Assembly (NCBI GenBank): GCA_016787065.1
Contig: JAEUVD010000003.1
Location: 34,582 to 98,581, forward strand
Source: Chitinophagaceae bacterium
GTDB lineage: Bacteria > Bacteroidota > Bacteroidia > Chitinophagales > Chitinophagaceae
DNA length: 64,000 nt
Direction of reading: 5' to 3'
The position numbers and the translations under genes were made by a program. This document shows positions 19,401-47,801 of the stretch, piece after piece; the first letter of the stretch is position 1; the number at the start of each line of letters is the position of its first letter. The notes under the pieces were generated by a model. That model did no database searches. It saw only the letters and a program-made list of their open reading frames with translations, and was not told the origin of the DNA.

Positions 19401-22400
19401 TTCAAGATCCTTCGGAAGTTGGCATTAGTGGTGTAACTGTTGTTCTTTACGATAATACAGGAAACCCTGTAGCTGCAACCATTACAGATGGTAATGGCTT
19501 CTATTTATTTACTGATGTACCTCCGGGTAATTATACTGTTGGCTTTACACCTCCAACTGGATTAGGCTTTAGTCCGAATAACGGTGGTGTGGGCAGTCCA
19601 AGTAATAGCGATGCAAATCCATTAACAGGCATTACAACATCTTTCACGGTAAATCCTGGTGATCAAATTACGTATGTAGATGCCGGATTATACCAATTAC
19701 CAAATAACATTGGTAGTCTTGGTGATCGTGTTTGGTACGATGTTAATGAAGATGGTAACCAAGATGCGGATGAAGTTGGCGTAGAAGGTGTAACCGTTAC
19801 GTTATACAGTGGCGATGGTACTACGGTATTAAATACTACAACCACCAATGTATATGGTAATTATATCTTCAACAATTTAGTAGAAGCTGATTATGTAGTT
19901 GGATTTAGTAACCTACCGGTAGATTATGTTCTAACCGTAAATACCGGAACCGACAGCACAACGAATAGTGATGCTGATCCGTTAAGCGGAAAAACCAATG
20001 TGATTCATCTTGGTTCAGGACAACATAATATGACCTATGATGCCGGTATTTATACGACCGATGTAGCCAATACTAATTCAATAGGTAATTACGTGTGGAA
20101 TGATATCAACAAAGACGGTATACAAGATGCAACAGAAAATGGTGTTCCAGGAATTACCGTTTCGTTATACAATAATACCAATCTCATTCTGAAAACAACA
20201 TCTACCGATGAGAATGGTTTCTATTTGTTCCCAGATTTACCAAATGGAATCTATTATGTAGGCTTCTCTAATTTACCTGTATCTTATCAGCTAACATCTC
20301 CAAACCAAGGTGCGGATGATGCCTTAGATAGTGATGCCGATCAAACGACACTCTTAACAGCTACTACAACGTTAACTGGTAATACAAACGACATGACGTT
20401 AGACGCCGGTATCTTCGCTAATAACGATCGTATTGGTAAAGGTTCATTAGGAGATAAAGTTTGGTACGATTTGAATAACGACGGATTACAAGATGCAAAT
20501 GAAGGTGGCGTGCCTGGCGTTTTAGCTACTTTGTACGAACAAGACGGTACAACAGTTTTAAAAACTACCACCACTGATGCCTTAGGTAACTATATCTTCA
20601 CAGGATTAGATGCCGGTTCTTACGTAGTAGGATTTACAAATCTTCCTTCAGGATTTACAATCACTACACAAAACAGTGATAACCAAGGTGTGAATGGTGA
20701 ATTAAATAGTGATGTAATTACAGCTACACAAAAAACACCAGTGGTTGCTCTCGGACAGGGAGAAAACAAACTGAGTGTTGACATGGGTATCGTTCCTCCG
20801 GTAGGGAGTGCAGGTCTCGGAAATTACGTTTGGATAGATTTGAATACCAATGGTCTTCAAGATGTAAACGAACCAGGCGTAACCGGTGTAACGGTAACTC
20901 TTTATAATAGTAGTAATAATCCTGTTGCGGTTACAACAACAAACTCAGACGGACAATATCAATTCGTAGGATTAACTCCGGGTACTTATGCTGTTGGCTT
21001 TAGTAATCTTCCTGATGGTTATGAATTAACCACACAGAATGCAGACGCCACAGGTATTAACGGTGCAGCGAATAGCGATGCCGATGTGCTTACCGGAATC
21101 ACGGCGAGTGTTACACTTGCTGCCGGCGATTTCAATCCTAATTTGGATGCCGGTATCTTCAGTACGTTGGTTGCAAGTTTAGGAGACTATGTGTGGTTAG
21201 ATATGAATGGCAATGGCGTTCAGGATCCAAGTGAACCAGGTGTTGGTGGTATTTTGGTAACTTTATACGACAACACAGGAACTCCATTAACTAGCATGAT
21301 TACAAATCCTAAGGGTGGTTATTTATTCAGTAACCTAAATCCGGGTACGTATTATGTTGGCTTTACGAACATTCCTTCCGGAATGATCTTTAGCGCTCAG
21401 GAAACAAACCCATCCGATGCAACAGGTAGCAACGCGAATCCATTAACCGGTACAACACCAACTGTAGTGCTTGCAGCCGGATCGCATAACCCTACTATAG
21501 ATGCTGGATTAATGTTACCAAATACCGCAGGTTTAGGTGATTATGTATGGCATGATGTAGATAAGAATGGTCAGCAAAATGCAGGTGAACCAGCAATTGC
21601 CGGTGTATTAGTTACGTTATACGACGGAACTGGTACTACAACCTTAGCTACGGCAATTACGGATGGTAGCGGTGCTTATAGCTTTACGAATTTAAGCGCA
21701 GGCGATTATCAAGTAGGATTTGCGGCACCAACCTTATTTACTCCTGATGGTGCGCGTGTTCCAATTCCAACACAATTGAATAATGGTACCGATGCTTCTG
21801 ATAACGATGCCGACCCGATTAGTGGACGAACAACTTCATACACTTTAGCGGTAGGAGAATTCAACCCAACCATCGACGCGGGCTTTATTTATCAGTTTGC
21901 AACACCAATTACCTTAAGTAGTTTCAATGTGAATAGTAATGAATGTAGTGCTTTCTTATCATGGACAACTTCGATGGAGAAAAATGCCGATTACTTTGCT
22001 ATTCTTCGTAAAGATGAAACCACAGGTTATACTGAAATCGGTCGTGTGAAAGCTGCCGGTAATAGTAATCTTACTAAGCAATATTCGTTTAACGATAAAG
22101 CCTTAGCTAATGGAACCTATTGGTATCAATTGAAATTGGTAGATATTGATGGCAACTTCAGCAATTCAAGCGAAGAACAAATTCAAGTGAATTGTGGCGG
22201 TGCCGGAAGTATTTCAGTTTATCCAAATCCTGTGGAAGATGTATTGCATATTCAGATTATTGCTGAATCGGCAGAATCAACAGAGTTAAGCTTGATGAAT
22301 ACGATTGGTCAGGTTGTTATTAAACAACAAGGCGAATTGGAAATCGGCGTGAACGAACTGAATATTCCAATGCAACGTTTAGCTGCAGGTACTTATTATC

Positions 22401-22453
22401 TGAAAGTAACGAACGGTGGTATCCCTTATACTATCAAGGTTACGAAGCAATAA
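13481..22453 (+). CDS. Giant (2990 aa) cell-surface adhesin-like protein with Ig-like tandem repeats, SdrD-B/Cna-B-like domains and a T9SS C-terminal sorting domain
   Basis: Signal peptide MFYPYVRKLFVLLLFLGSSYVLRAQ. Ten 80-aa repeats. Nine or ten G(N/D)(Y/R)VW.D.N.NG.QD...E.G..GV.V.LY domains with DxDxD-type Ca-binding loops. The tail YPNPVEDVLHIQI...YYLKVTNGGIPYTIKVTKQ is a type-A T9SS CTD. Confidence 0.92.
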   Translation: MFYPYVRKLFVLLLFLGSSYVLRAQTISGTVYRDFNGNGTRQTSGVTIEPGTGGVLVNAYDASNSLVASAVSNPDGSYSMPYTVPVRLEFVIPSVGSGNYCSGAPLDFTGFGGDGNNIRFITASTSGIDYAIHYPFDYVSNTNPPFYFPQYSNGNPLGGGTTGTATGFKGHLYNHTGTTAAAQTLALSQIGTTWGVAYSKQAKVLFSAAFVKRHAGLGPLGSGGIYKLTPTATSFTTSQFYDLDANGHNSRAGAGAPAFGPGSSYNLSGVNLATYLGGTDPLSNAPIGLGVIGSNTDRNLPANFATDNNDPAAMGQVGRVGLGDIDISDDGKYLFVVNLYQRVIHRLELDDAYNPTSVISVTTFSIPAQPVTNGVLRPFGLGFHRGDIYLGAVASGENGGVNNVGGVTDLYGFVFRLKDATTGSAAFESTPLINLPLNYAKGPSVLNDANAKKWYPWNNSTSALLNVSGESTLPTPILSDIDFTDNGDMILDFMDRSGHQFGYQNYLNLSGTTALFTYDIGGDILIAGKDCGGNGFTIENNGSFTSADGTSYTSGAANGQGPGNSEFFVGEFYPTWHSETSMGSCAVLKGTRQVLTTLMDPINDFSSGTGKLSTVNGTRSGELQAIRTANDFGKANGLGDIEVAGDVAPLEIGNRVWNDANANGVQDPTEVGIANVSIELFCDADNNQIPDGAAIATTNTDGNGYFYFNISNVTDGNCTEPGNQAGPQPGLNYLVSIGSSDWTGGSGTGDLNALFLAPSNSASNGIVDASDNDATLVSGVPTISVLTSSKWGDNNHTFDFGFTPAPPCTVTASVVAGTQSICSGGDPVAFTETTAATGSGTLTYQWQSSTTDCASGFNNIPTATGTTYDPPAGLTVTTYYHVVVTNTDGADVCTDISNCITVTVNPNPSADAGPDKSLDCATTSTTIGTAAVGGNSYSWSPASGLNATNIAEPTANPSTTTTYTVTVTTGFGCTATDDVMVSVNTTPPSADAGQDKSLDCSTTSTTIGTAAIGGNTYSWSPSTGLNATNVAEPTANPSSTTTYTVTVTGSNGCTASDMVTVTVNTTPPTADAGQDKSLDCSTTSTTIGTAAIGGNTYSWSPSTGLSATNVAQPTANPSSTTTYTVTVTGSNGCTASDMVTVTVTTAPPTADAGQDKSLDCATTSTTIGTAAIGGNTYSWSPSTGLNATNVAQPTANPSSTTTYTVIVTGSNGCTASDMVTVTVNTTPPTADAGQDKSLDCSTTSTTIGTAAIGGNTYSWSPSTGLNATNVAQPTANPSSTTTYTVIVTGSNGCTASDMVTVTVNTTPPTADAGQDKSLDCSTTSTTIGTAAISGNTYSWSPSSGLNATNVAEPTANPSSTTTYTVTVTGSNGCTASDMVTVTVNTTPPTVDAGSDKTLDCTTTSTTIGTAAISGNTYSWSPSTGLNATNVAEPTANPSSTTTYTVTVTGSNGCTASDMVTVTVDVTPPTADAGQDETLTCSVTSVFIGSPAISGNTYSWSPSTGLTNANVAQPTAYPTATTTFTVTVTGSNGCTASDMVTVTVDVTPPTVDAGPDKSLDCTTTSTTIGTAAISGNTYSWNPASGLSATNVAEPTANPSTTTTYTVTVTGSNGCTESDVVTVTVNTTTPTADAGQDKTIDCATSSVMIGTAAIAGNTYNWDPGTGLNDATLAQPTASPSTTTTYTVTATASNGCTATDVMTVTVNGNLGSVGNYVWIDLNANGMNDEPTTAGVNGVTVELWKETSSGSGTYALLNTTVTANNAGDPGYYSFSICDAANYKIKFPLNVGAEKLTSQTATPATDANSDANVTDGFSPVFMIDPNGSGTTKDNPTIDAGYYTTACLGNYVWNDLDKNGIQDANEVGVAGITVTLYNSSDVVISTTVTDAYGKYHFCELMPGDYKVGFTLPQDYNFSVTDSGTDDNVDNDASGTTGLTGFYTLKSGDDNLTVDAGIFFEAETTASVGNYVWYDTNQDGIQDPSEVGISGVTVVLYDNTGNPVAATITDGNGFYLFTDVPPGNYTVGFTPPTGLGFSPNNGGVGSPSNSDANPLTGITTSFTVNPGDQITYVDAGLYQLPNNIGSLGDRVWYDVNEDGNQDADEVGVEGVTVTLYSGDGTTVLNTTTTNVYGNYIFNNLVEADYVVGFSNLPVDYVLTVNTGTDSTTNSDADPLSGKTNVIHLGSGQHNMTYDAGIYTTDVANTNSIGNYVWNDINKDGIQDATENGVPGITVSLYNNTNLILKTTSTDENGFYLFPDLPNGIYYVGFSNLPVSYQLTSPNQGADDALDSDADQTTLLTATTTLTGNTNDMTLDAGIFANNDRIGKGSLGDKVWYDLNNDGLQDANEGGVPGVLATLYEQDGTTVLKTTTTDALGNYIFTGLDAGSYVVGFTNLPSGFTITTQNSDNQGVNGELNSDVITATQKTPVVALGQGENKLSVDMGIVPPVGSAGLGNYVWIDLNTNGLQDVNEPGVTGVTVTLYNSSNNPVAVTTTNSDGQYQFVGLTPGTYAVGFSNLPDGYELTTQNADATGINGAANSDADVLTGITASVTLAAGDFNPNLDAGIFSTLVASLGDYVWLDMNGNGVQDPSEPGVGGILVTLYDNTGTPLTSMITNPKGGYLFSNLNPGTYYVGFTNIPSGMIFSAQETNPSDATGSNANPLTGTTPTVVLAAGSHNPTIDAGLMLPNTAGLGDYVWHDVDKNGQQNAGEPAIAGVLVTLYDGTGTTTLATAITDGSGAYSFTNLSAGDYQVGFAAPTLFTPDGARVPIPTQLNNGTDASDNDADPISGRTTSYTLAVGEFNPTIDAGFIYQFATPITLSSFNVNSNECSAFLSWTTSMEKNADYFAILRKDETTGYTEIGRVKAAGNSNLTKQYSFNDKALANGTYWYQLKLVDIDGNFSNSSEEQIQVNCGGAGSISVYPNPVEDVLHIQIIAESAESTELSLMNTIGQVVIKQQGELEIGVNELNIPMQRLAAGTYYLKVTNGGIPYTIKVTKQ
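16208..18607 (+). repeat. Ten in-frame tandem copies of a 240-bp (80-aa) unit
   Basis: ADAG(Q/P)DK codons recur at 16208, 16448, 16688 and so on to 18368, an exact 240-nt period. The central copies differ by only a few substitutions. Unit: ADAGQDKSLDCSTTSTTIGTAAIGGNTYSWSPSTGLNATNVA.PTANPSSTTTYTVTVTGSNGCTASDMVTVTVNTTPPT. Confidence 0.95.
18608..21890 (+). repeat. Nine tandem SdrD-B/Cna-B-like domain repeats (~105-120 aa each, divergent)
   Basis: The seed G(N/D)YVW.D.N.(N/D)G.QD recurs nine times in the translation. One additional copy lies near 15430. Confidence 0.8.
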
Positions 22454-25584: not shown

Positions 25585-27399
25585 TTACGCATGTTTGATT
25601 ACTACTTTATGAAACTCTTTGAAATATTCCTTATCCGTTAAAACCAAGGTGTACACACCTTCGGGTAAATCATATACCGGTATTAGCGTAGTATCATTCT
25701 GATTCATGCCATACCGAACTACCGCCCCTTCGATATTAAGTAAAGTAAGTGATAGTGCAGAAGAACTTCCACGAATGGTAATGCTTAACTGCGTATCCGC
25801 AGGATTTGGGTAAATTAGCACATCACGAGTATCGCAGAACATACGTAACGACAGAATTGCTGAATCTACATATGTTGAATCTTTTTGAACGATACGAATT
25901 TTATAATAGCAAAGGTCATGCGAAGGATTATGTTTGAACGTGTACATACCACCATTACTCCGGGCTTCCACAGCTCCAATTTTTTCAAACGCCAGGGCAT
26001 CAACTGAATACAAAATATCATAGCGTTCAACGAGTTCATCCGATGCGGTTTCCCAAGAAATAAGCGCTTCACAATGTTCTGCTTTAACAGAGGCATTAAA
26101 TAAAGAAATAGGTAAGGTTGTATTCGGAGAAAATATTGGTAACCAATTGTAATTATTTCCATTCATAATGGCTTGCGTATTCGCAGCACTTACACCAAAC
26201 CAGTCGGTAAGTATGGTTGAATAGATTTGCCTAAAATCATGTTGTAACGGTAAATCATCGTTCACGGTAGCATTTGCAGGCAGTACAGGATTTGCGCCAA
26301 TGATGGCAGGATTAACAGCCGAGCCAAAAACAAAAACAGGTTCTGAGGTACCATGATCGGTTCCGGCACTACCATTCGATTTAATACGCCTTCCAAATTC
26401 AGAGAAGGTCATTCCAACTACTTTATTATCTAAACTCTGGTTTTCAAGATCTTGCTGAAACGCGCCTATGGCCGATGAAAGTTTACCTAACAACGAGGCA
26501 TGTTCGCCTTGCGTATGATCTGCTGAATCAACCTGATCATTATGGGTATCAAAGCCATTGATGGTAACAATGTATACAGGTGTTTGCAATCCACCGGAAA
26601 TTAGTTTGGCCACTATTTTTAATTGATCTGCCAAATCATTATTGGAAGGATAGGTTACTGAATTTGTTCCGCCTTGCGTTGCTAATTGTATGCGTGATGT
26701 GTACGATTCTGTTTGTTGCGCTATTAAACGCACATAGGTTAGTTCATTTCCTCCTTTCGTATTTGGAGCAGGGTCAACAAAGTTGTTTTGAATATTGTAG
26801 AAATAATCAATATTAGAAACAGTCATTCCGTTTAACCCGTTATTGCCATAGATGAGTGAAGATGCCTGATAACCGATTTCAATACTTAACGGATCTAAAA
26901 AAGTTGGATTCGGATAAGCTAAAGGGGCTCCCGTAAATTGATTTTCTATAAATCGTCCTATCCAACCTGAATTAATATATAAGCTGGAATCGGATGCACT
27001 GGAGAAAATATCGGTAGCCCGAAAATGAGAATAATTCGGATCTGGGTAACTTACTCCTTGTATAATATTCAGCTTACCATTATTGTACAGATTTTGCATG
27101 GCGGTCATCGCGGGATGCAACCCGGTATCACTGGTACCATTTAATGATAATACCGAGCTCGAAGGCAATAAGATATTTGATCGTGCTGCACTTAAAGCAC
27201 TGTATTGATCGAGTGGCACTAAGGTATTTAATCCATCATTCCCTCCACTTAATCGGATGAGCACAAGAATTTTACCGTTACTGTTTCTTGTCTTTTTATT
27301 GATAGCTTGTTCTTGACCGAAAGCATGCACGGGTAATCCATTTACCGAGCAGGCCATCGTAGCCATAGATGCCATTTTTATAAAGTCTCTTCGTTTCAT
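25585..27399 (-). CDS. DUF1501 (sulfatase-fold) protein with a twin-arginine signal and a T9SS C-terminal sorting domain
   Basis: N-terminus MKRRDFIKMASMATMA is a Tat motif. The core includes GGNDGLNTLVP, FDTH and GTDHG. The tail is VLIYPNPADTQLSITI...VYTLVLTD...KVVIKHA. Confidence 0.8.
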   Translation of the reverse strand: MKRRDFIKMASMATMACSVNGLPVHAFGQEQAINKKTRNSNGKILVLIRLSGGNDGLNTLVPLDQYSALSAARSNILLPSSSVLSLNGTSDTGLHPAMTAMQNLYNNGKLNIIQGVSYPDPNYSHFRATDIFSSASDSSLYINSGWIGRFIENQFTGAPLAYPNPTFLDPLSIEIGYQASSLIYGNNGLNGMTVSNIDYFYNIQNNFVDPAPNTKGGNELTYVRLIAQQTESYTSRIQLATQGGTNSVTYPSNNDLADQLKIVAKLISGGLQTPVYIVTINGFDTHNDQVDSADHTQGEHASLLGKLSSAIGAFQQDLENQSLDNKVVGMTFSEFGRRIKSNGSAGTDHGTSEPVFVFGSAVNPAIIGANPVLPANATVNDDLPLQHDFRQIYSTILTDWFGVSAANTQAIMNGNNYNWLPIFSPNTTLPISLFNASVKAEHCEALISWETASDELVERYDILYSVDALAFEKIGAVEARSNGGMYTFKHNPSHDLCYYKIRIVQKDSTYVDSAILSLRMFCDTRDVLIYPNPADTQLSITIRGSSSALSLTLLNIEGAVVRYGMNQNDTTLIPVYDLPEGVYTLVLTDKEYFKEFHKVVIKHA

Positions 27400-27414
27400 G
27401 TTGTTCTTTTTGAA

Positions 27415-29151
27415 TTAGGCAATTTGATGTTCAGCAGTTCTGCAAATAAGGGTTAACAAGGCGCGTAAACGAGAGAGCACGATACCTTCTTTCGTTGGGT
27501 CACTTGGATCGTTTATATAATTTATCCATGCTTGCGTCCAATAGTAATTTGAAGTTTGCCCGGATAACAATACCGATTTCAACGTTGTTTTTGATGTAGT
27601 AGAAAGGGTGAAACTTAAAAGTCTGGATAGAAAAAAATCTAAGAGGATATCCGGATCTCCCGGACTGCTGCAATCTTGCGCAAACGCAATTACATTGGAG
27701 CGTACCGTAATAGTTGGCGTAGCCCACTGCCCCCATGCATTAGCCAAATTATCGATATAACTCATTCGTTTGGTTATCGAATCGGAGTTTATCCATAGCT
27801 GATGAAATTGGGGTGTTTGGTAATAGGCCGTCCAACCTGAAACACTCGGTGGGTCGCCAATACTCATGGCAAGTCCATCCATTAAATAACCCATCGTAGA
27901 TAAACTCCAATGGTAATCTTCATAACTTGTAGTAGCAGGAAACTCAACATGGGCGGTATTCATAAAACCGAGGTAAAAGTCCATCGGATTACGAATGACA
28001 CTATCCATCGATAAGGGGTCGAAGAAATGATAGCTTTTAAACAGTTGCTCCAGTACCGGTTTGATTTCCCAATTCGAAGAAATAAAGGTTTGAGCAAGCG
28101 GTGTAATAATATTCGTTTCAATATCCGAATCAATATCGTAGTGCATGAAAAAGCGATAGATTTTTCTACATATAAATTTTGCTACGATGTTGGTTTTTGC
28201 AAAAATCATTGTAAGCAGGGCATCTAATTCTGTTTCACCTGCTGCACCACTTTGACCAACAATGGTTGTACTATTATAAAACGAGGAAAACACTTTATTG
28301 GAAGTATCGTGCCAACTCGAGTCGTAAAAATAGTTATAGGATGTGTTGGTATCTAAACGAAATCCGGTTAGCACTTTGGCGGCGAGTTTTATATCGTTTT
28401 CAGTGTACATATTAGGCCCCTTACCGAGTGTAAAAAGCTCTTGAAGTTCACGTGCATAATTTTCATCCGGCGACCATTGGTTATTCCATGCCCCATTGAG
28501 GTAAATGAGCATCATGCCGTTTTTGGTTATGTCCTTTACAAAGGTTTTAAAATTACCCAAGGCATGTTGTCTTAACAGTAGAACATATTCATGAAAAAGT
28601 CGGGCATCACCTACCATAGCATATTGTGTAGCAAAATGATTATGCCAAAAGGCAATCATTTTTTCTTCAATACTCATGGGTTGATTCAAAATATTATGAA
28701 ACCATGCCGTTCGCACCGAAAGATAGCGGTAGTAGTTAACCGTACCATCGTTGTTATAAGGCGCTCCAACCCAAGTTTGTCCGTACGCAATGCTCTGATT
28801 ATCTGCTTGTAGATTTTGATAATAGTTGATAGGAAGCAGCGGAGAAGGGTTACTCGTGTTAAGCAACACATCGATGGCTTGTGATGGCGTTAAACTTGCC
28901 AGCGCATTATAATGTGTATTTTTTACACCTACCGTAAGACGGCGTAATACATGTACTTTTTGTTTTTCTCCCCAAGGACCTGCATACGGCGATAACGTAC
29001 TTCGTGATTTTTTTACCTGTAAGGGTAGTGATTTATTTCCGTATTTCTTTACCAATTCATCCTGACTGGCGTCGTAGGTTTTAATGATGACGGGCGTGTT
29101 CTTGGAAGGAATAAATTTATCAAAGAATTCCGCCCTGTTTAAATGTGGCAT
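27415..29151 (-). CDS. DUF1800 family protein (usual partner of DUF1501)
   Basis: Its size, all-helical character and position 15 nt upstream of a DUF1501 gene fit the family. Motifs include WHNHFAT and ARELQELFTLG. No N-terminal signal peptide is visible. Confidence 0.7.
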   Translation of the reverse strand: MPHLNRAEFFDKFIPSKNTPVIIKTYDASQDELVKKYGNKSLPLQVKKSRSTLSPYAGPWGEKQKVHVLRRLTVGVKNTHYNALASLTPSQAIDVLLNTSNPSPLLPINYYQNLQADNQSIAYGQTWVGAPYNNDGTVNYYRYLSVRTAWFHNILNQPMSIEEKMIAFWHNHFATQYAMVGDARLFHEYVLLLRQHALGNFKTFVKDITKNGMMLIYLNGAWNNQWSPDENYARELQELFTLGKGPNMYTENDIKLAAKVLTGFRLDTNTSYNYFYDSSWHDTSNKVFSSFYNSTTIVGQSGAAGETELDALLTMIFAKTNIVAKFICRKIYRFFMHYDIDSDIETNIITPLAQTFISSNWEIKPVLEQLFKSYHFFDPLSMDSVIRNPMDFYLGFMNTAHVEFPATTSYEDYHWSLSTMGYLMDGLAMSIGDPPSVSGWTAYYQTPQFHQLWINSDSITKRMSYIDNLANAWGQWATPTITVRSNVIAFAQDCSSPGDPDILLDFFLSRLLSFTLSTTSKTTLKSVLLSGQTSNYYWTQAWINYINDPSDPTKEGIVLSRLRALLTLICRTAEHQIA

Positions 29152-29312
29152 ACGTTTATTTTTTGAAGGTAGTGCTTCCCGAAGTTAATGGATGTTGCTT
29201 CGAATGGAAAGAAAAGTTCGGATAATTTAAGTTGATATAAATTAACCGAAATTACTTGTGCAACAATGCTGCTTAATAATTTCGAGAATCCTATTCGCCT
29301 ACGTTCAAGAAA

Positions 29313-30773
29313 CTACATAACCACATTAATATACCCCAACGGAGTTACATTGATCCATGGTGCTAAGTCGCGATAAGAATAAACACATAACCAAGGATGT
29401 ATTTTTTGAAGATAAGCTGCTAAGGAAGGGCGAATAAAATCCTGACAAACAACACCATGTAATTTTGTGTTGCGAGGGATTTCCGTAAGTTGTGTTTCAA
29501 TCGAATCTAAAACACCATTAAACAACTTTCTTTCTCCATCCATATCAAGTTGAAGCCAGGTTTCTTCTACCGTTACACCCATGATAAGTGCATTGAAATT
29601 ATTATCCTTGGAAATCGATACAGCGGTTTCTTCTTGCAAACCACGACGTAACGATTCCACAATCAAATCTTTGCCTTGAAGTTTTTTGTTTTCACTATAA
29701 ATAACAGTAAGTGCGGAAGTAGAACCAAAGGCTATCGTTCCGGCATCTCCGTACATCGCATCTTGCTCATACGTAAGCAAGTGAAGTAACTTTTTTAAAT
29801 TGCGAATGGGGATTCGTTCCTCCGACAAACGCTTCAGAAAATACACGATATCCTCCATTGTATATTGTTCTAAAGCCAAGGCTAATACATCGGCATGAAG
29901 TGGTTGTTCATCTAATTGAAATGCGATAAAGGTTTTGTTTATCCAACAGGAAGCATGTAATTGAACTACGGCGGAAGTCATTAAATTAAGCATACCCATC
30001 CATGCAAAACAAGTATCCGTTTCCGGTTGTAATTCGTTGCTGTTTTTTAAAACATGTATCGTAGCAAAATGAGGATGGTTTACGTCGTGCGGATTACCAA
30101 TAACTTCACCGGAAGTAACAGCCGGCATTTCCATAAAATAATTTTCCGGAAAACTATGTAGAACAGGATAAGGTAAATCGTTAATCCAAATTCTAAAACC
30201 AGTTTCAGGTAAAGTATCATCAATATGGAAGGTAGGTTTGGGAACCAGAACACCTTTATCATAATACAATTGTGAATGCCAAGCCGCTACATATTCTTCT
30301 CTTGAAAAGGAATCTATGTTATGTGGCGAAGTATAAACTTTTGAGGTAACATCAATACGCAAACGATGCATCTCCACCGTTGGCTGCACATTTTTTTGGG
30401 AAAAACATGGTTGAATTTGTATGCGCTCTGCTTCGAGCTTATCCGGATTAAAGGAACCTACTAATACCATTTCTCGATGATAAAAAAGAGCTTCTGAAAA
30501 ACGCAGCGTCCAGTAAGTACTATTTTCTTCATAGGAGTAACACGGACGATACACCTTTGCCACACGAAATTCCTGATTGTTTATTTGAATGGCATGATAA
30601 GATGAATACTGCATCGTGCAGCTTACCGCTACTTTTTCTGTATAGAAATTTTCCGCTAATAAAGAAAGATAAGCTTTTACATCGTCAACAATCTTTTGTT
30701 TTTCTTCTTCAGAAAAGGAATGAAACAACGATTGTTCTACACAAAGAGTAATTAAAAAATTTCGTGTTGTCAT
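29313..30773 (-). CDS. Soluble FlhA/FHIPEP cytoplasmic-domain-like protein (system component C)
   Basis: The ATG at 30773 overlaps the upstream stop as ATGA. By-eye matches to FlhA_C signatures are GVLVPKPTFHIDDTLPETGFRIWIND, IVYFLKRLSEERIPIRNLKKLLHLLT and the C-terminal FIRPSLAAYLQKIHPWLCVYSYRDLAPWINVTPLGYI. No TM segments. Confidence 0.6.
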   Translation of the reverse strand: MTTRNFLITLCVEQSLFHSFSEEEKQKIVDDVKAYLSLLAENFYTEKVAVSCTMQYSSYHAIQINNQEFRVAKVYRPCYSYEENSTYWTLRFSEALFYHREMVLVGSFNPDKLEAERIQIQPCFSQKNVQPTVEMHRLRIDVTSKVYTSPHNIDSFSREEYVAAWHSQLYYDKGVLVPKPTFHIDDTLPETGFRIWINDLPYPVLHSFPENYFMEMPAVTSGEVIGNPHDVNHPHFATIHVLKNSNELQPETDTCFAWMGMLNLMTSAVVQLHASCWINKTFIAFQLDEQPLHADVLALALEQYTMEDIVYFLKRLSEERIPIRNLKKLLHLLTYEQDAMYGDAGTIAFGSTSALTVIYSENKKLQGKDLIVESLRRGLQEETAVSISKDNNFNALIMGVTVEETWLQLDMDGERKLFNGVLDSIETQLTEIPRNTKLHGVVCQDFIRPSLAAYLQKIHPWLCVYSYRDLAPWINVTPLGYINVVM

Positions 30774-33427
30774 GACCACTGAAGCATTTGAGCGTTATTC
30801 AATTCATTTTCTGGTGTTTGAAACATCATGGATGTGCCAAACAAAACATTTGGAAACTCGATGGCGCAAATGAGTTGTAGCACAAAAGCAGTTTGCTCAT
30901 GTTGAACTATAACGCGTGCATTTTTATCAAGTGTATTTCTAAAATAGGTAAGCATGGTCTGACAAGAAGTAGCGTCCATATCAGCGGCCCACTGATGAAG
31001 TAAGGTTTGTTTAAAAACAGATGTCAATTGCGATTCGTTTTCTGCACTAAGCGTATACCATGTAAAAAGTATATCGTTATACGGGTTTTGCAAGGGAAAC
31101 TCTCGTAAACTCATTATATGATACGCTATTTCCTGAATAGCTTGATTGGCTTCCACCCCCCTAAGAAACAACGTGTACATTGAAGGGAGGTTTTGCATGG
31201 AAACTTTATATTGCAATAAGAGTTGAACACATTGCATAAAGGCCGTTTTCTGATGACGATCCGCTTGTTCTGTAACCGTTTTAAAGTTCGCTTGATCATA
31301 ATGCATAAACCGATGCAATTGATTCCAAAGCGTATATTGTAAATGCTCAAAGATTACATCTACCGGTTCAAGAATAACACAAGAGGAAGGTATTTGGGTT
31401 CGATATTCTTCCTTAACCCAGTGTAAGATAAAATATGGAGCGTAAGCATAACACGTTTCAATAACAGGTACTTCGTTGAGAGCCCCACGAACTAAAATAC
31501 AATCTGCATGAAATTTAATGCCATGATTGGTGTACACTTCTTGTAACGTGGAGTAGAAGTCATAGTGCTCGGAATGAAAGGTGTATTCTCTGAAAATTAT
31601 AGCCGGTAACGCCACACCAAATCGTTGATGAAAAGCTTCTTTAAACTGATTCAGTTTTTGCCAGAAGGCCGGCGTAAAATCATTGCGTTCGGGCGTTAGA
31701 AATAAATCACACAAACGTGAATCACATTCAACTGCAATTTCTGTAATGGTATGATTGTAAGGCGTTCCTCCATCGAAAACAGTGCGCAACACTTTTATGC
31801 GTTCCACCTGTTTGCGAAAGGTAGTATTGTTTGGAAAATCAAGTAAAGCATCTTCATAAACTGCTATCAGAAAATCCTCATCCTGTTTTTTATCGGCAAT
31901 AGATTTGGTAAAGAAAGTATAGAAGTCTTGTTTACGTTGTTCGGGTATTACCGCACAAAGCTGATGATAAAAATGTTTACTCGCCTCAAAGTTGATATTA
32001 CTTGTTGCATCATGTTGGGCTAAACGTTCAGAATAAAATTCGGCGTATTCAAATAATGCTTGTGAATCGGGAAAGGCTTTTATTCCTTCTAACAAATTTT
32101 CAGAAGCCTGTTGCCACTGTTGCAAACTTTCGTAGCAAGTGGTAATCTCCATGATGCACAATTCCTGAAACACTTCCGAAAATGGATAGGCTTGCTTCAA
32201 AACGGCAATAGCCGCTTCATAACACGATGCTTGCTTATATAAAATATACAAAGCCCAATACGGATCGAAACAAGTTGGTGCCGCTAGCATTGCTTCTTTA
32301 TATACCTTCTCCGTTTCGAGATAAGCCGCATCCGCAGTTAAGTTTGATAGATCAGCCGGTAAAGGATGCCGGATAATACTACCTGCTTGAAGGAGTACAT
32401 CAACACGCAACTTGTTTTCTTGTGCTGCCTTCGCATGCCATTGTTTCGCAGCTTCTATATCATTCACGGTTATGCAGGCATTGGCAGCATCTAAATAATA
32501 GTGAATGGCATAGTTGATTTCAATAAGAAGCTCCGTATCCACATAAGCGGAAATCTGGTCTTTTCGCACTTCATAGAGTTTGCTTTCTGCACCATACAAA
32601 CTGATTAAGTTCTGGTATGTTTCCAGATAACCGGGTTCACTTGCTTTGGCTTTGAAATACCATTCTTCTGCTGTGAAAAAATCTTCCTGTTTACGAGCAC
32701 AATTGCCCAAGCCGTTATAACCAATAACCAACATTTTTTGATCAAGCACCATCTGTTGATAGCGGCTCTTTGCATCCTCTATTAAATTTTGTTCCAGATA
32801 CCAAGTAGCATGTACACTTTGCACATAGGGTTCCGTTTCATGAAGTAGAATAGCTTCATCGAGGAATGTTTTACTTCGTTTATAATCACCTACATAAAAT
32901 ATATAGATTGCGGCTAAAACACTGAGAAAATGTGCTTTTCTAGGCGCGGTAATGTGAGGCGATGTTATCCAATGTTGTATCACCGGAATCATTTCTACCC
33001 AACGTCGCTCTTCAATAATGGTAACCCTATTCGTCCAAAACAATTCTTCTTCCGCGCTAATCTGTTGATTAGATTGAAGCACCTGTAGTACATCTTTAAA
33101 ATGTACAGTTCGCCACACATAGAGGTATTCAAAAAATACTTCTTCAAGCGTGTTCGTTGCTTCCGCTATTAATTGCGCATAACCTTTTGCAACGTGTAAA
33201 GCAAATTGCGTTCGTGTTTGTATTAAGGTATCTAACGCACGTGTAGGCTTACTTTGTATCACCGCATTATCCCAGTGTGTCCAATGCGACAATACATTCG
33301 ATTCATTTTGAACAGTTCGTTTTAAAGATTCAATGATGGAAGCAAATTCAACCATATCGGTGCCTGCAAGCGATGCATTGTAATACATCGCGGCCAATAA
33401 TTCTTGATATGAAATTGAAGGTGCCAT
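30770..33427 (-). CDS. TPR-repeat protein with a C-terminal FlhA/FHIPEP cytoplasmic-domain-like module (system component B)
   Basis: The N-terminal ~550 aa are helical, TPR-like repeats. The last 325 aa (30773..31747) read ITEIAVECDSRLCDLF...FKEAFHQRFGVALPAIIFREYTFHSEHYDFYS..., PVDVIFEHLQYTLW, FMQCVQLLLQYKVSMQNLPSMYTLFL and ARVIVQHEQTAFVLQLICAIEFPNVLF. No TM segments. Confidence 0.6.
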   Translation of the reverse strand: MAPSISYQELLAAMYYNASLAGTDMVEFASIIESLKRTVQNESNVLSHWTHWDNAVIQSKPTRALDTLIQTRTQFALHVAKGYAQLIAEATNTLEEVFFEYLYVWRTVHFKDVLQVLQSNQQISAEEELFWTNRVTIIEERRWVEMIPVIQHWITSPHITAPRKAHFLSVLAAIYIFYVGDYKRSKTFLDEAILLHETEPYVQSVHATWYLEQNLIEDAKSRYQQMVLDQKMLVIGYNGLGNCARKQEDFFTAEEWYFKAKASEPGYLETYQNLISLYGAESKLYEVRKDQISAYVDTELLIEINYAIHYYLDAANACITVNDIEAAKQWHAKAAQENKLRVDVLLQAGSIIRHPLPADLSNLTADAAYLETEKVYKEAMLAAPTCFDPYWALYILYKQASCYEAAIAVLKQAYPFSEVFQELCIMEITTCYESLQQWQQASENLLEGIKAFPDSQALFEYAEFYSERLAQHDATSNINFEASKHFYHQLCAVIPEQRKQDFYTFFTKSIADKKQDEDFLIAVYEDALLDFPNNTTFRKQVERIKVLRTVFDGGTPYNHTITEIAVECDSRLCDLFLTPERNDFTPAFWQKLNQFKEAFHQRFGVALPAIIFREYTFHSEHYDFYSTLQEVYTNHGIKFHADCILVRGALNEVPVIETCYAYAPYFILHWVKEEYRTQIPSSCVILEPVDVIFEHLQYTLWNQLHRFMHYDQANFKTVTEQADRHQKTAFMQCVQLLLQYKVSMQNLPSMYTLFLRGVEANQAIQEIAYHIMSLREFPLQNPYNDILFTWYTLSAENESQLTSVFKQTLLHQWAADMDATSCQTMLTYFRNTLDKNARVIVQHEQTAFVLQLICAIEFPNVLFGTSMMFQTPENELNNAQMLQWS

Positions 33428-33433
33428 GAAGGT

Positions 33434-35578
33434 TTATCGTGTGTTTTTAAATAACAAAGTTTCACTTCCTGTACGCTTGCTTCCATCAAACATGCCTTCT
33501 TGTTGTAATTCTTCTCTTCGGAAAACAGGGGTGGTGCAAGCACTACAAAAGTTATCTTCAGGAGATGGTATCAGGTAACCACAATGATGACAACGTTTCA
33601 AGATATTTCCGCAACGTCGACAACTTTTCATATCCGGCTCGAGGAGCAAGTAATTCACCTTCGTTGCCTCTTCAACTTTAACAAATTCAATTTCATTGTT
33701 ACAAACTTCTCCCTTCCTACTTGCAAAGTCGTTTTTGTTTTTGCATTTCACAGCGAACACCATTTGTTCTTTGATAGCCGGTGCTTCCTTTTCAAAAACA
33801 AACCGAAAGGATTTTCCTAAATAAGAAGAAACTTTTACACGGGGTTGTTTGCTTTTAAAAAAAGATATTTCGCCAAGCGAACGTTTAACAGCGGTATCCA
33901 TATCCGTTTCATCTTGAATGAGGGCTTTATAGAAATACCGTGAAAAATTGATTGCGTTTGTATTTCCCGCAGGTGCTTGTAATGCTAATACACCGGGTAC
34001 TTCTTTCAATAACTGAAAGGCAAAACCACTGAGAGCAAGGTAGGTTTCCTCCGGACTATCTACCGCAGCATGTAAAAAAATCAAAGCGGGTTTCTGTAAA
34101 AAACAATCGATAAATGATTGTCCGTTTTTCCAATTTAAATTATTGCTTTGGATACTGAAGGTATCGCCTAAGGCAAGTTCAAAAGTGGGCGTAGCTTCTT
34201 TATTGCTTCGCGCCATACCAAAAACATGAACCACTTGAAACGGTGTATTTTGTTTTACGATGAAATCAGCAAGCTGATTGAGCGATGAAAAATATTCGAG
34301 TTGACCGGAAACTTTTTTACCGGAGTAACCTTGTATATCCTGAATAGCTTCTAATAAAATTTGTTCATCTGCTTTGAGTTCGTCGTTTTTACGCAAATGA
34401 TCGGAAACAGCAATAAGAACACGCAATTCTTGTGTATTAATAAGCTGATCATTTCCTTTAACCGAGAGCCTGCGGGTAAGTATCAATTCATTACTTTCAC
34501 CTACGAAGAGTCCTTTATTATCGGCAAAAGGACAATACAAATATTCCCACGGCAAGCAAGCCAGCAACGAAGATTCTTCGTCGAAGCGTAAAATAATTTT
34601 TAAACGAATTTTATTTTTTACCGCTTGTTGTACATAAGTTGTAAAGGCAACTTGTGCTTCGCTTGAGCAAAGCAAACGCTGAAAAAGAGAGGTACCTAAA
34701 ATTTCAAATTCATCTTCACGCAAATTGTCTTCCACCAATAACCGTTGAAGTATACCTGTAACTTGTTCTGAAAAACGTTCGCCTGAAACGGTGTATTTAA
34801 CGCGAAAATCTACATCGTTTGGTGAACGGAAATAAACATACTTCCCTTGCTTAACCGAAATCACCACCGCGTCACTATCTACCCGAGAAATTTCAAAGAG
34901 TTCATTTTCATTAAATGCTTGTTGTAGAAGAACCTCCTTATTGGCAACTGCATGTTGCTGCAAACCTAGCTTGAGTTCTTCTTCTTGAATACGTTTTAGG
35001 ATGGTTGATTTAATGACTGCAAAGTTATTAGCACTCAGTAATTCTTTGGTGAGTGTATTGATGTCGGAAAATAACTCCAACATATCATCTAACTCATTCT
35101 TAATTTCTCGATAACGTTTAAGCCATTCGATTCGTTTTGGACCAATGCTATCTGGATTATTTTTTACAGAAGCTTCAGCCTCGTCTATTCGTTTATTCCA
35201 GTGGTCGATGTAAACTTGTTTTCCTTCCGGTGTTTTTAAACTTAGATTATCTTCTACCCGAAGTGGTATAATTCGTTTGGTAAAATCTTCTTCTTGACCT
35301 TTTGAGTTTCTAAAAATTTCCAATAGTTCATACATACAATACTCCGATTTCAAATATTTATCGGAAATACCTACAATAACTAAGTGACCTTCCCCGATGC
35401 GGTTCATGAATTTGGTAATCTGTCCGGTATATCCCAAATCATATTTGTCGCGAACAACATGATAACCGTCATTAAGCAAGGAATTATAAATTTCATGAAT
35501 CATCTTTTCCCGACTTTCGCCGGTTTCCTTTTCATCGCCATGGGCATAAGAAAAAAATATTTCAACAGATGAAGGCAT
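33434..35578 (-). CDS. TIR domain + coiled coil + CHAT-like domain + double zinc-ribbon protein (system component A)
   Basis: The ATG at 35578 (MPSSVEIFFSYAHGD...) is preferred over the TTG at 35599, which would overlap the -7 box. TIR: FFSYAHGD...LVIVGISDKYLKSEYCMYELLEI. CHAT-like: LRVLIAVSD...VVHVFGMA...ALIFLHAAVDS...GVLALQAP...YFYKALIQDETDMDTAVKRS. Zinc ribbons: CRRCGNILKRCHHCGYLIPSPEDNFCSAC. Confidence 0.75.
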   Translation of the reverse strand: MPSSVEIFFSYAHGDEKETGESREKMIHEIYNSLLNDGYHVVRDKYDLGYTGQITKFMNRIGEGHLVIVGISDKYLKSEYCMYELLEIFRNSKGQEEDFTKRIIPLRVEDNLSLKTPEGKQVYIDHWNKRIDEAEASVKNNPDSIGPKRIEWLKRYREIKNELDDMLELFSDINTLTKELLSANNFAVIKSTILKRIQEEELKLGLQQHAVANKEVLLQQAFNENELFEISRVDSDAVVISVKQGKYVYFRSPNDVDFRVKYTVSGERFSEQVTGILQRLLVEDNLREDEFEILGTSLFQRLLCSSEAQVAFTTYVQQAVKNKIRLKIILRFDEESSLLACLPWEYLYCPFADNKGLFVGESNELILTRRLSVKGNDQLINTQELRVLIAVSDHLRKNDELKADEQILLEAIQDIQGYSGKKVSGQLEYFSSLNQLADFIVKQNTPFQVVHVFGMARSNKEATPTFELALGDTFSIQSNNLNWKNGQSFIDCFLQKPALIFLHAAVDSPEETYLALSGFAFQLLKEVPGVLALQAPAGNTNAINFSRYFYKALIQDETDMDTAVKRSLGEISFFKSKQPRVKVSSYLGKSFRFVFEKEAPAIKEQMVFAVKCKNKNDFASRKGEVCNNEIEFVKVEEATKVNYLLLEPDMKSCRRCGNILKRCHHCGYLIPSPEDNFCSACTTPVFRREELQQEGMFDGSKRTGSETLLFKNTR
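33524..33622 (-). other. Double zinc-ribbon-coding segment (CxxC-x6-CxxC-x12-CxxC)
   Basis: tgtcgacgttgcgg (CRRCG) was read at 33609-33622 on the minus strand. There are six Cys in three CxxC pairs. Confidence 0.7.
35150..35578 (-). other. TIR domain-coding segment
   Basis: FFSYAHGD is a betaA-type motif. The SxxYLxSxxCxxEL motif is present with its Glu conserved (SEYCMYELLE). Confidence 0.75.
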
Positions 35579-35596
35579 GCAACGAATTGATAAGGC

Positions 35597-35604
35597 CAAA
35601 TATA
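35597..35604 (-). promoter_or_regulatory. TAnnTTTG box (TATATTTG) upstream of the TIR operon
   Basis: Plus strand reads caaatata, 19-26 nt upstream of the ATG at 35578. Confidence 0.4.
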
Positions 35605-35682
35605 GTTTTTTAACACGAACTGTTTTTAATAAATTCGAAGAGGGAGGTTAAGCTCAACATGAACTATAGAAAAACAAACCGT

Positions 35683-35690
35683 TATATTTG
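35683..35690 (+). promoter_or_regulatory. TAnnTTTG box (TATATTTG) upstream of the kpsF-like gene
   Basis: It lies only ~7 nt before the ATG at 35697, which implies a leaderless or very short leader transcript. It is divergent from the TIR operon promoter. Confidence 0.3.
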
Positions 35691-35696
35691 CCTCGT

Positions 35697-36662
35697 ATGA
35701 ATTCGGAGCAAATTAAATCGTTGGCCTTACAAACTATTTCTCTGGAAGCCGAAGCCGTTCGGCACTTGGCTCAGTATGTGAATGAAAATTTTCTTCAAGC
35801 CGTTCAATGGATTCATGAAAGTAAGGGCAGACTCATTATTTGCGGCATTGGTAAAAGCGCCATCATAGCACAGAAGATTGTGGCTACCATGAATAGCACC
35901 GGAACGCCTGCGCTATTCTTACATGCTGCTGATGCCATTCATGGTGATTTAGGGATGATGCAAGCCGACGATATCGCATTACTAATTTCTAAAAGTGGTG
36001 AGAGCGCAGAAATTAAAGTGTTGATTCCACTTATTAAAAATTTCGGCAATCGCATCCTCGCTCTTTGCGGTAACGCACAATCGAGTTTAGCCTTGCAAGC
36101 GGATGTCTTCATAAATACTACGGTAAGCCAGGAAGCTTGTCCGAATAACCTCGCACCAACCAGCAGCACTACTGCGCAATTGGTTATGGGCGATGCCTTA
36201 GCGGTTTGCTTGCTTGAATTAAAGGGATTTACTCCGTCGGATTTTGCAAAGTTTCATCCGGGAGGTGCTTTAGGAAAACAACTCTATACCCGCGTGTCGG
36301 ATTTAAGTAAGTTAAATGCCAAGCCAAGCGTTTTAGCTAATGCAGGTATGAAGGAAACCATAGTAGCCATTAGTACCCATCGTTTGGGAGCTGTTGCGGT
36401 GTTGAATGAATCCAATAAGCTGTTAGGTATTATAACCGACGGCGACATCCGACGGATGCTTGAAGTGCATAGCGACCTCAGTACGTTGTGTGCATCCGAC
36501 ATTATGAACGATCAACCAAAAACAATTGATGCCCAAGCATTGGCCGTAGATGCCTTAAGTATGATGCGTAAATTTAATATTGGTCAACTAGTAGTTTTAG
36601 AAGAGAATCTTTACGCAGGCATGCTGCATATCCAAGATTTGGTTAGAGAGGGAATTATTTAA
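35697..36662 (+). CDS. kpsF: Arabinose-5-phosphate isomerase (SIS + tandem CBS domains), KpsF/GutQ family
   Basis: GRLIICGIGKSAIIAQKIVATMNSTGTPALFLHAADAIHGDLG is an SIS domain. The C-terminal CBS pair includes LLGIITDGDIRR. Confidence 0.88.
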   Translation: MNSEQIKSLALQTISLEAEAVRHLAQYVNENFLQAVQWIHESKGRLIICGIGKSAIIAQKIVATMNSTGTPALFLHAADAIHGDLGMMQADDIALLISKSGESAEIKVLIPLIKNFGNRILALCGNAQSSLALQADVFINTTVSQEACPNNLAPTSSTTAQLVMGDALAVCLLELKGFTPSDFAKFHPGGALGKQLYTRVSDLSKLNAKPSVLANAGMKETIVAISTHRLGAVAVLNESNKLLGIITDGDIRRMLEVHSDLSTLCASDIMNDQPKTIDAQALAVDALSMMRKFNIGQLVVLEENLYAGMLHIQDLVREGII

Positions 36663-47475: not shown

Positions 47476-47801
47476 AGGCTTGTTTCGCCTTTGTTGATGT
47501 TGGTAATGTAGTTGCATGGTGTACAATTTAGGTTTGGGCGAAGTTCCCTTTTAATTAGAGGCTTCTGGGCATTCGTTTAGAAAGTGGTATGTTTTTCGTG
47601 GTATTCATACAACCTCATGAAGGATTTGGTAATTCCGTACTTGCTCAATGGATGTAATAGGCGTAATAGTTCTAAAACACCTTTACTGAATTAACAAGTT
47701 CCAAGACTACATTCTTATTGAAACCTTTGCTACCTAATGTTTTGTTATTACATTTTTTGGAATATACCTCAGCGTAATTTTACACCCTAAATTTTTTTCC
47801 T

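Follow-up and report, generated by a model that had tools for sequence, protein, structure and literature searches.

A three-gene operon pairs a TIR protein with two soluble FHIPEP_C-domain proteins in a Chitinophagaceae bacterium

A 64,000-nucleotide stretch of contig JAEUVD010000003.1 from a Chitinophagaceae bacterium (hereafter the window) carries three long open reading frames (ORFs), genes A, B, and C, which lie head to tail on the minus strand and form one three-gene operon. Gene A (33434-35578, 714 residues) encodes a TIR domain, a linker, a CHAT-like domain that is predicted to be dead, and a double zinc ribbon (DZR). Gene B (30770-33427, 885 residues) encodes a family-specific N-terminal domain (N-domain), an array of tetratricopeptide repeats (TPRs), and the cytoplasmic domain of the FHIPEP (FlhA/SctV) family, FHIPEP_C; gene C (29313-30773, 486 residues) encodes an N-domain and a second FHIPEP_C. 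To our knowledge, FlhA and SctV are seen as core parts that belong to flagella and injectisomes only. The operon is a TIR-armed and divergent representative of a large and apparently undescribed family of cytosolic systems whose basis is a duplicated cytoplasmic domain from the export gate of type III secretion systems (T3SS). Judging from sequence and gene context, we give an even chance to the reading that A-B-C is a cytosolic conflict system, most likely for anti-phage abortive infection, in which a FHIPEP_C heteromer would scaffold activation of the TIR effector. An earlier note on this DNA had singled out the interval 29313-31747, which corresponds to C and the last ~325 residues of B (~561-885). 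The upstream TIR-pseudo-CHAT gene, the three-gene operon, and its place as a divergent member of a larger soluble FHIPEP_C family go beyond what that note described.

Soluble FHIPEP_C domains of the B and C proteins

Residues 124-474 of C matched the Pfam family FHIPEP (PF00771; E = 2.3e-11, 43.4 bits, gathering cut-off 29.1) at positions 321-654 of 657, that is, over the cytoplasmic domain and none of the membrane domain. The NCBIfam equivalogs SctV (TIGR01399; E = 1.4e-10, positions 339-677, 40.3 bits vs a cut-off of 692) and FlhA (TIGR01398; 23.5 bits vs a cut-off of 772) matched C over their C-terminal halves only and far under cut-off. An AlphaFold2 (AF2) model of C from a 3-sequence alignment reached a predicted local distance difference test score (pLDDT) of 37.5, and a model from a 30-sequence alignment of the wider family was used instead (pLDDT 87.5, predicted template-modelling score 0.88). 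When this model was compared with the PDB by Foldseek, all of the 50 matches listed in order of E value were SctV_C or FlhA_C structures (CdsV, YscV, InvA, MxiA, EscV, and FlhA), with E values from 4e-16 to 2e-13, target-normalised template-modelling scores of 0.67-0.80, and ~350-400 alignment columns. Sequence identity to the solved SctV_C/FlhA_C structures among these matches was 13-18%. A family profile with C as its first row matched PDB sequences of CdsV_C (E = 4.9e-62), YscV_C (E = 3e-54), and B. subtilis FlhA_C (E = 8e-36).

The FHIPEP_C domain of C (29328-30410, residues 124-484) comprises subdomains SD1-SD4 and belongs to a paralogue type that we call d2. It is preceded by an N-terminal alpha/beta domain (30411-30779, residues 1-123), which is common to soluble FHIPEP_C proteins of ~550 residues and was without a family match; in the AF2 model it formed a confident beta-alpha-beta3-alpha2 unit.

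A full-length Pfam scan of B returned weak TPRs only. When its C-terminal 331 residues were scanned alone, FHIPEP was matched at positions 331-624 (E = 2.8e-7, 29.9 bits, cut-off 29.1), and a profile of the second paralogue type, d1, matched the C-terminal domain of B with 127.5 bits (E = 2.8e-35). This domain (30833-31813, residues ~539-865) is thus of the d1 type and strongly diverged. A profile of the B C-terminus had no match among PDB sequences, and a word-indexed protein search with the alignment of this region returned nothing, not even self matches, and hence is insensitive there. Direct comparison of B with C was likewise blank: BLASTP gave no significant alignment of the domains, and hhalign of the two 3-sequence alignments gave a probability of 0.1, because the paralogues are too diverged and their homology is visible only via the wider family. 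Taken together, these results bear out the proposal of the earlier note that both B and C are homologues of the FHIPEP cytoplasmic domain. The three landmarks that it had recognised by eye, 'GV.P' in SD1, the 'IRNL' helix in SD3, and the C-terminal 'P.L.V.SY.EL', fell in homologous columns.

Ahead of its FHIPEP_C domain, B has a TPR region (31808-32869, residues ~187-540), in which the Pfam TPR matches were weak and PDB TPR proteins were matched at up to E = 8e-7; TPR matches were strong in relatives of B. The N-domain (32870-33427, residues 1-186) recurs throughout the wider family, in every TPR-FHIPEP_C protein and fusion. By BLASTP B matched the fusion protein P0010 with E = 2e-21, and a profile of the N-domain ('BN') matched B-like proteins from many loci with E values of 1e-11 to 1e-76. 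The whole length of B aligned with ~1400-residue proteins such as P0010. We infer that the N-domain is a candidate docking site for a CHAT or caspase partner. Where FlhA has its membrane domain, B has TPRs, as the earlier note had seen, and in addition this conserved N-domain.

FlhA_C and SctV_C (InvA, MxiA, YscV, CdsV, EscV) share with B and C the four-subdomain fold, the sequence landmarks, and the region corresponding to PF00771 positions 321-657. Unlike FlhA and SctV, B and C lack the export gate, which is the N-terminal polytopic part of ~330 residues with its eight transmembrane segments and FHIPEP loop. Kyte-Doolittle analysis found 0 hydrophobic segments in B and C and no transmembrane segment in A, B, or C, against 6-9 in canonical FlhA/SctV genes used as controls, and the Pfam matches of B and C start at positions 331 and 321. 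B and C also differ from FlhA and SctV in being without export-apparatus partners (SctRSTU or FliPQR(-FlhB), ATPase complex) in the window or in related soluble loci, and in forming two paralogous FHIPEP_C types that are always paired or fused, preceded by TPRs or novel N-domains, and encoded with TIR, CHAT, or caspase proteins. Because membrane domain, equivalog scores, and apparatus context all fail, B and C should be described as FHIPEP_C-domain proteins and not as FlhA or SctV. The domain assignments for A, B, and C are secure.

Gene A, the operon, and its surroundings

The TIR domain of A (35180-35560, ORF residues 14-140) matched Pfam TIR_2 with E = 1.3e-12 (48.7 bits, cut-off 28), and the closest solved TIRs by sequence were plant signalling TIRs. 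In its motif SEYCMYELLEI, phmmer aligned CMYEL with CLEEL of Roq1 and CLMEL of L6, both plant TIRs. A glutamate stands at the plant-TIR catalytic position (E91 in ORF numbering, E84 when counted from the ATG) and is invariant in three orthologues; we take it to be the catalytic residue from established knowledge of plant TIRs. In PADLOC-DB v2, A had only a TIR-like bSEFIR match (E = 2e-6 over 75 residues), and B and C had none.

CHAT stands for 'Caspase HetF Associated with Tprs'. A CHAT-like domain of caspase fold (33797-34744, ORF residues ~286-601) was recognised in A by BLASTP homology to the CHAT proteins of relatives, since Pfam CHAT had no direct match on A and residues ~286-601 were without any Pfam match. 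A aligned with a 463-residue protein of locus L014 over ~380 residues (E = 1e-22) and with a 591-residue protein of locus L012 (E = 5e-107); the L014 protein consists of a CHAT domain (PF12770, E = 9e-23) followed by a DZR. The DZR of A (33536-33643, residues 653-688; Pfam E = 6e-4) occupies the same C-terminal position as in the L012 and L014 proteins. The active L014 segments 'HFIGHGKYD' and 'LHACEG' aligned to 'HVFGMARSN' and 'LHAAVD' in A, so that the presumed dyad positions, which we assigned from knowledge of caspase and CHAT motifs, are changed from GHG to GMA and from HAC to HAA. Both substitutions are kept in the orthologues of A, and the L012 paralogue is likewise altered ('HFIGLA', that is GLA, and 'LHASKD', that is HAS). 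Because both residues of the His/Cys dyad are replaced, the CHAT domain of A is predicted to be a pseudo-protease.

The start of gene A is probably to be annotated at 35578. The mechanical ORF (33434-35599, 721 residues) begins at a TTG at 35599, 7 codons upstream of the ATG at 35578, and three gene A orthologues all begin with MPSSVEI, that is, at this ATG. For gene C, the mechanical ORF (29313-30779) has 488 residues from a GTG, and database cluster P0001 begins at the ATG at 30773. This ATG overlaps the TGA of gene B as ATGA, which indicates translational coupling of B and C; between A and B, the TAA of A is followed by a gap of 6 nt and the ATG of B. Upstream of A, a 109-bp intergenic region (35579-35687) separates it from a divergently transcribed kpsF-like gene of the SIS/CBS type and is presumed, from gene layout, to hold the A-B-C promoter. 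A consensus scan of 29000-35800 found no sigma-70-type site in 35579-35687, Bacteroidota promoter types lying outside that consensus. Over the scans as a whole, sigma-70 promoters and intrinsic terminators were as frequent as, or rarer than, expected from shuffled sequence, and such scans are uninformative for Bacteroidota.

A word-indexed search of 5.8 billion proteins with C returned the window protein and two clusters, at 40% and 37% identity; this search is insensitive for the family and yields 3-4 clusters only. When the window was compared with the other two lineages, identity dropped sharply from gene to gene, from 81-82% in the kpsF-like neighbour and 62-63% in A to 49% in B and 38-39% in C. 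The ratio of nonsynonymous to synonymous substitution rates (dN/dS) between the two closer lineages rose from 0.07 in A to 0.11 in B and 0.19 in C; neighbouring genes gave 0.065-0.07. A, B, and C are functional and all under purifying selection, and C is the fastest-evolving of the three.

Downstream of C, positions 25585-29151 hold a DUF1800/DUF1501 gene pair between C and a Carb_kinase gene, and the DUF1501 gene carries a type IX secretion system (T9SS) C-terminal sorting domain. In the orthologous loci L002 and L003, C is followed directly by Carb_kinase-HMA-DUF465-VIT1 without this pair, which is therefore an insertion here or a loss there. Three further ORFs of the window are very large, with 2990, 2320, and 1528 residues (13481-22453, 40564-47526, and 49771-54357); the product of the 2320-residue ORF is a thermolysin-like M4 peptidase that carries a CHU_C-associated Ig domain. 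The T9SS sorting domain and the CHU_C Ig domain in neighbouring genes fit a Bacteroidota (Cytophaga-like) host.

A wider family of soluble FHIPEP_C proteins

An HMMER search of 1.84 billion representative proteins with a profile of the C clade found 341 matches at E <= 1e-3 and 89 at E <= 1e-10, and essentially none of the 150 listed of these 341 has a polytopic membrane domain. The matches fall into size groups: proteins of 480-670 residues with an N-domain and FHIPEP_C, fusions of ~1400 residues with TPRs and two FHIPEP_C domains, and a few proteins of ~2000 residues. The ~1400-residue fusions, which join B and C, matched Pfam FHIPEP with E values of 1e-74 to 1e-86 in two domains. Relatives were analysed by context look-ups and by a metagenome scan with locally built profiles. 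The metagenome scan gave 219 relatives, from which 80 loci were fetched, 27 of them canonical FlhA/SctV loci with eight transmembrane segments that served as controls; in all, 61 of the 98 fetched loci scored as soluble, some being duplicates or contig-end fragments. The relatives come from many environments. Among the 61 soluble loci, a FHIPEP_C pair or fusion recurred with a CHAT or Peptidase_C14 gene immediately upstream. This survey of FHIPEP_C-only proteins and their gene neighbours, which the earlier note had proposed, thus revealed a large soluble family tied to caspase-like proteases.

Five types of arrangement were distinguished. In type 1 (L014, L021, L023, L033), genes for a ~355-residue protein without assignment and a CHAT protein of ~500 residues precede an N-domain-TPR-FHIPEP_C gene (900-1100 residues) and an N-domain-FHIPEP_C gene (~550 residues); in L029, also of type 1, the last two genes are fused. 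In type 2 (L017, L032, L036, L041, L047), a ~275-residue protein without assignment and a Peptidase_C14 caspase precede a fusion of TPRs with two FHIPEP_C domains. Type 3 consists of giant proteins with other modules before TPR-FHIPEP_C, each followed by a ~550-residue FHIPEP_C gene; in one example HSDR_N and a ResIII helicase (HsdR-like) are fused and adjoin an HsdS gene, and in another AAA_16, a STAND-like ATPase, is fused before TPR-FHIPEP_C. Type 4 is L012, which comes from an NCBI assembly and is the nearest outgroup of the window clade, with patatin, caspase C14, a putative pseudo-CHAT-zinc ribbon protein, TPR-FHIPEP_C, and FHIPEP_C; its patatin matched a PADLOC phospholipase effector with E = 7e-65. 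In type 5, a single case, a tyrosine recombinase, the last of three in tandem, is fused to FHIPEP_C. These module fusions and their context lie at L020:3157-9042, L044:4263-9929, L055:2501-5002, and L028:1720-3294, and one locus has a phage-tail-sheath-like gene upstream.

The CHAT or C14 dyad is intact in the sister operons, and most relatives have a live caspase-fold partner. A three-TPR protein of ~155 residues is encoded directly downstream of the C-like gene in several type 1 loci (L021:10032-10499, L022:5459-5938, L033:8170-8640, and L039:11615-12082). These small proteins matched TIGR02552, the SycD/LcrH family of class II T3SS chaperones, with E values of 5e-27 to 3e-30 and 94-105 bits (cut-off 104.8). 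The position of a SycD/LcrH-type gene beside a C-like gene suggests that SctV_C's role in docking chaperones has been kept. The window operon has no separate gene of this kind, and the TPRs of B had no match to TIGR02552; by analogy, the TPR array of B may play a docking role like that of the class II chaperones (SycD/LcrH/IpgC).

The ~355-residue protein is conserved and always precedes the type 1 CHAT gene (L014:521-1597, L021:3097-4152, L023:4005-5066, L029:4522-5601, and L033:811-1884). It had no match in Pfam, PADLOC, NCBIfam, or PDB sequences, and is a candidate protease substrate or effector. In type 2 loci, a conserved ~275-residue protein (L017:1111-1962 and L041:5472-6287) is encoded ahead of Peptidase_C14. 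It is reminiscent of bacterial gasdermins in size and placement; searches of PADLOC, Pfam, NCBIfam, and PDB sequences gave no support for that identity.

In a neighbour-joining tree without support values, the d1 (B-type) and d2 (C-type) FHIPEP_C domains formed two deep clades, with membrane-anchored sequences beside d2. The window sequences, together with those of L001, L006, L010, and L012, formed a mirrored long-branch subclade in both clades, as expected of an ancient, co-evolving hetero-pair. Because the genes are coupled here, fused in relatives, and descended from ancient paralogues that evolve in parallel, the B/C pair almost certainly works as a heteromer. By profile, the soluble family lay nearer chlamydial and Yersinia SctV_C (E = 5e-62 and 3e-54) than Salmonella FlhA_C (E of about 1e-19). 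The sequences hint at an injectisome-type rather than a flagellar origin for the soluble FHIPEP_C family.

Possible functions of the operon

Induced proximity is what activates TIR NADases and caspases. FlhA_C and SctV_C make up nine-membered rings, to which complexes of chaperone and substrate bind (PMC8213127; PDB 7QIJ, 6CH2). By analogy with these rings, oligomers of the FHIPEP_C domains of B and C would build a platform of one ring or of stacked rings. Sensing or ligand binding would fall to the TPR array of B, a part that in relatives may also be played by the SycD-like protein, and A would be attached to the B/C platform through its presumably dead CHAT-zinc-ribbon module, which would serve as the adaptor. 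A trigger would alter the assembly and bring the TIR domains together; one example would be a phage protein that binds to the TPRs or to the chaperone-docking surface. The clustered TIRs would become active NADases, and NAD+ depletion or a signal would stop the infected cell. In the sister systems, what this platform switches on would be a live CHAT or caspase C14 protease, and the patatin or the ~275- and ~355-residue proteins would act as downstream effectors.

A role in defence is suggested by three features: the exchange of effectors among loci (TIR, CHAT, C14, patatin, HsdR-like helicase, and STAND-like ATPase), the coupling of the genes, and their accelerated divergence. A more specific form of this reading, which we hold only tentatively, is that a sorting part of the T3SS, namely the SctV/FlhA ring, duplicated into an obligate hetero-pair, with TPR/SycD modules, came off the membrane and became an NTPase-free, apoptosome-like cytosolic immune hub with interchangeable death effectors. 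In such a hub, once a ligand was captured by the TPR or chaperone arm, the ring would template the clustering and activation of TIR here and, elsewhere, of CHAT or caspase, patatin, or a restriction-type nuclease-helicase.

The operon can be set beside two kinds of known system. TPR-CHAT proteases (Csx29 of the type III-E CRISPR 'Craspase') and caspase-like defence modules likewise combine a caspase fold with a TPR array, as described in bioRxiv 10.1101/2022.08.22.504715, and the sister operons resemble TPR-CHAT modules in having an intact-dyad CHAT or C14 protein beside small proteins that could be substrates. Unlike in TPR-CHAT proteases, the window CHAT lacks His and Cys, TIR is fused to it as the presumed effector, and the TPRs lie on a separate protein that ends in FHIPEP_C; the window operon is also without a CRISPR effector, STAND ATPase, or gasdermin. 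In the two-gene BcTir/BcTpr system (bioRxiv 10.1101/2023.05.26.542521), TIR adjoins a TPR protein, as in the window. BcTir/BcTpr and the TIR-nucleotide-binding leucine-rich-repeat (NLR) resistosomes such as Roq1 resemble A-B-C in having a TIR with the catalytic Glu whose activation by induced oligomerisation is expected. They differ in that the platform proposed here would be a FHIPEP_C heteropair, not a NOD/STAND ATPase or a TPR protein alone, and in that the window TIR is linked via a putative pseudo-CHAT adaptor. Full-text searches of a paper library, absence from which does not prove absence from the literature, yielded no paper linking FHIPEP, FlhA, or SctV with TIR, CHAT, caspase, or anti-phage defence, and a look-up of terms within the 2020 eLife survey of conflict systems found no link of FHIPEP, FlhA, or SctV to such effectors.

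Several observations weigh against a defence function. The case for it is one of guilt by association. PADLOC-DB v2 recognised no known anti-phage system in A-B-C, and the operon sits outside any recognisable defence island, between the kpsF-like gene and housekeeping or T9SS-cargo genes. The same A-B-C order is found at the same chromosomal site beside the kpsF-like gene in three lineages, so that the locus looks vertically inherited rather than mobile, and the dN/dS values reflect purifying selection with no obvious arms race. The window clade is without the SycD-like gene and the upstream ~355-residue gene of its relatives, and the d1/d2 division comes from a neighbour-joining tree without support values. 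No relatives were found on viral contigs, which is neutral for the defence reading.

The same synteny, apparent vertical descent, lack of a defence island, and purifying selection would be in keeping with an alternative that we regard as unlikely, though as the most serious one: that A-B-C is a cytosolic module for regulated proteolysis, programmed cell death, or development, for example in filamentous or multicellular bacteria or in kin conflict, whose platform senses an endogenous signal or client and is not anti-phage. CHAT and caspase-TPR architectures also have links to development in multicellular bacteria. Such systems are discussed in PMC10907252 and PMC8195603. Against this alternative, the partners in relatives are typical of anti-invader systems, including a type I restriction-modification fusion, a patatin of the type that serves as effector in cyclic-oligonucleotide-based anti-phage signalling systems (CBASS), and AAA_16/STAND-like ATPases, and bacterial TIRs in which the Glu is intact mostly serve as immune effectors.

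It is rather improbable that the TIR of A instead makes a signal, in the manner of Thoeris or plant TIRs, for an effector encoded elsewhere, so that B and C would regulate the signal only and A would not be the killer. That TIRs can make signals derived from ADP-ribose is stated in bioRxiv 10.64898/2025.12.03.692087, and the affinity of A to plant signalling TIRs points the same way. The operon in three lineages, however, has no candidate signal-binding effector (SLOG, Macro, SAVED, or STING), and the equivalent place in sister systems is held by directly acting proteases or lipases.

An assignment of B and C to secretion, as accessory cytoplasmic parts such as extra sorting rings of a flagellar or injectisome T3SS or another secretion system elsewhere in the genome, is very improbable. 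In its favour, some relatives keep a SycD/LcrH-like chaperone gene; the host-genome check covers the 64-kb window. Within that scope, the statement of the earlier note that the window has no other flagellar or T3SS gene held in two tests of limited reach, a BLASTP comparison with ORFs from the 27 canonical FlhA/SctV loci and a Pfam scan of ten neighbouring genes. For ~45 related soluble loci (~0.5 Mb), ~400 ORFs were compared by BLASTP with the canonical-locus ORFs, and no secretion-apparatus homologue was found save the chaperone-like TPR protein. The partners that are conserved are instead CHAT, caspase, and TIR proteins. The T9SS sorting and CHU_C Ig domains in the window point to Bacteroidota, which, as far as we know, are classically without T3SS. 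That B and C are functionless, decaying remnants of an ancestral export-gate gene is barely credible: their extreme divergence (13-18% identity to solved SctV_C/FlhA_C for C, and B barely above the Pfam threshold) would suit decay, but the ORFs are long and intact, their order is kept in three lineages with dN/dS of 0.11-0.19, the AF2 fold is confident, and a large family has the same architecture.

If the conflict-system reading is true, a ring known from secretion machines has also been put to use away from secretion, which would be a new evolutionary fate for T3SS components. It would also provide an immune or cell-death scaffold other than STAND/NLR ATPases, SAVED/CARF sensors, or filaments, a new class in prokaryotes, and a tractable handle on how a FlhA_C-type ring reads chaperone-like TPR ligands. 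The finding bears on T3SS evolution, namely on which came first and on the movement of components between secretion and immunity. The ~340 representative clusters, labelled 'FHIPEP family' or 'hypothetical' only, are candidates for experimental defence screens.

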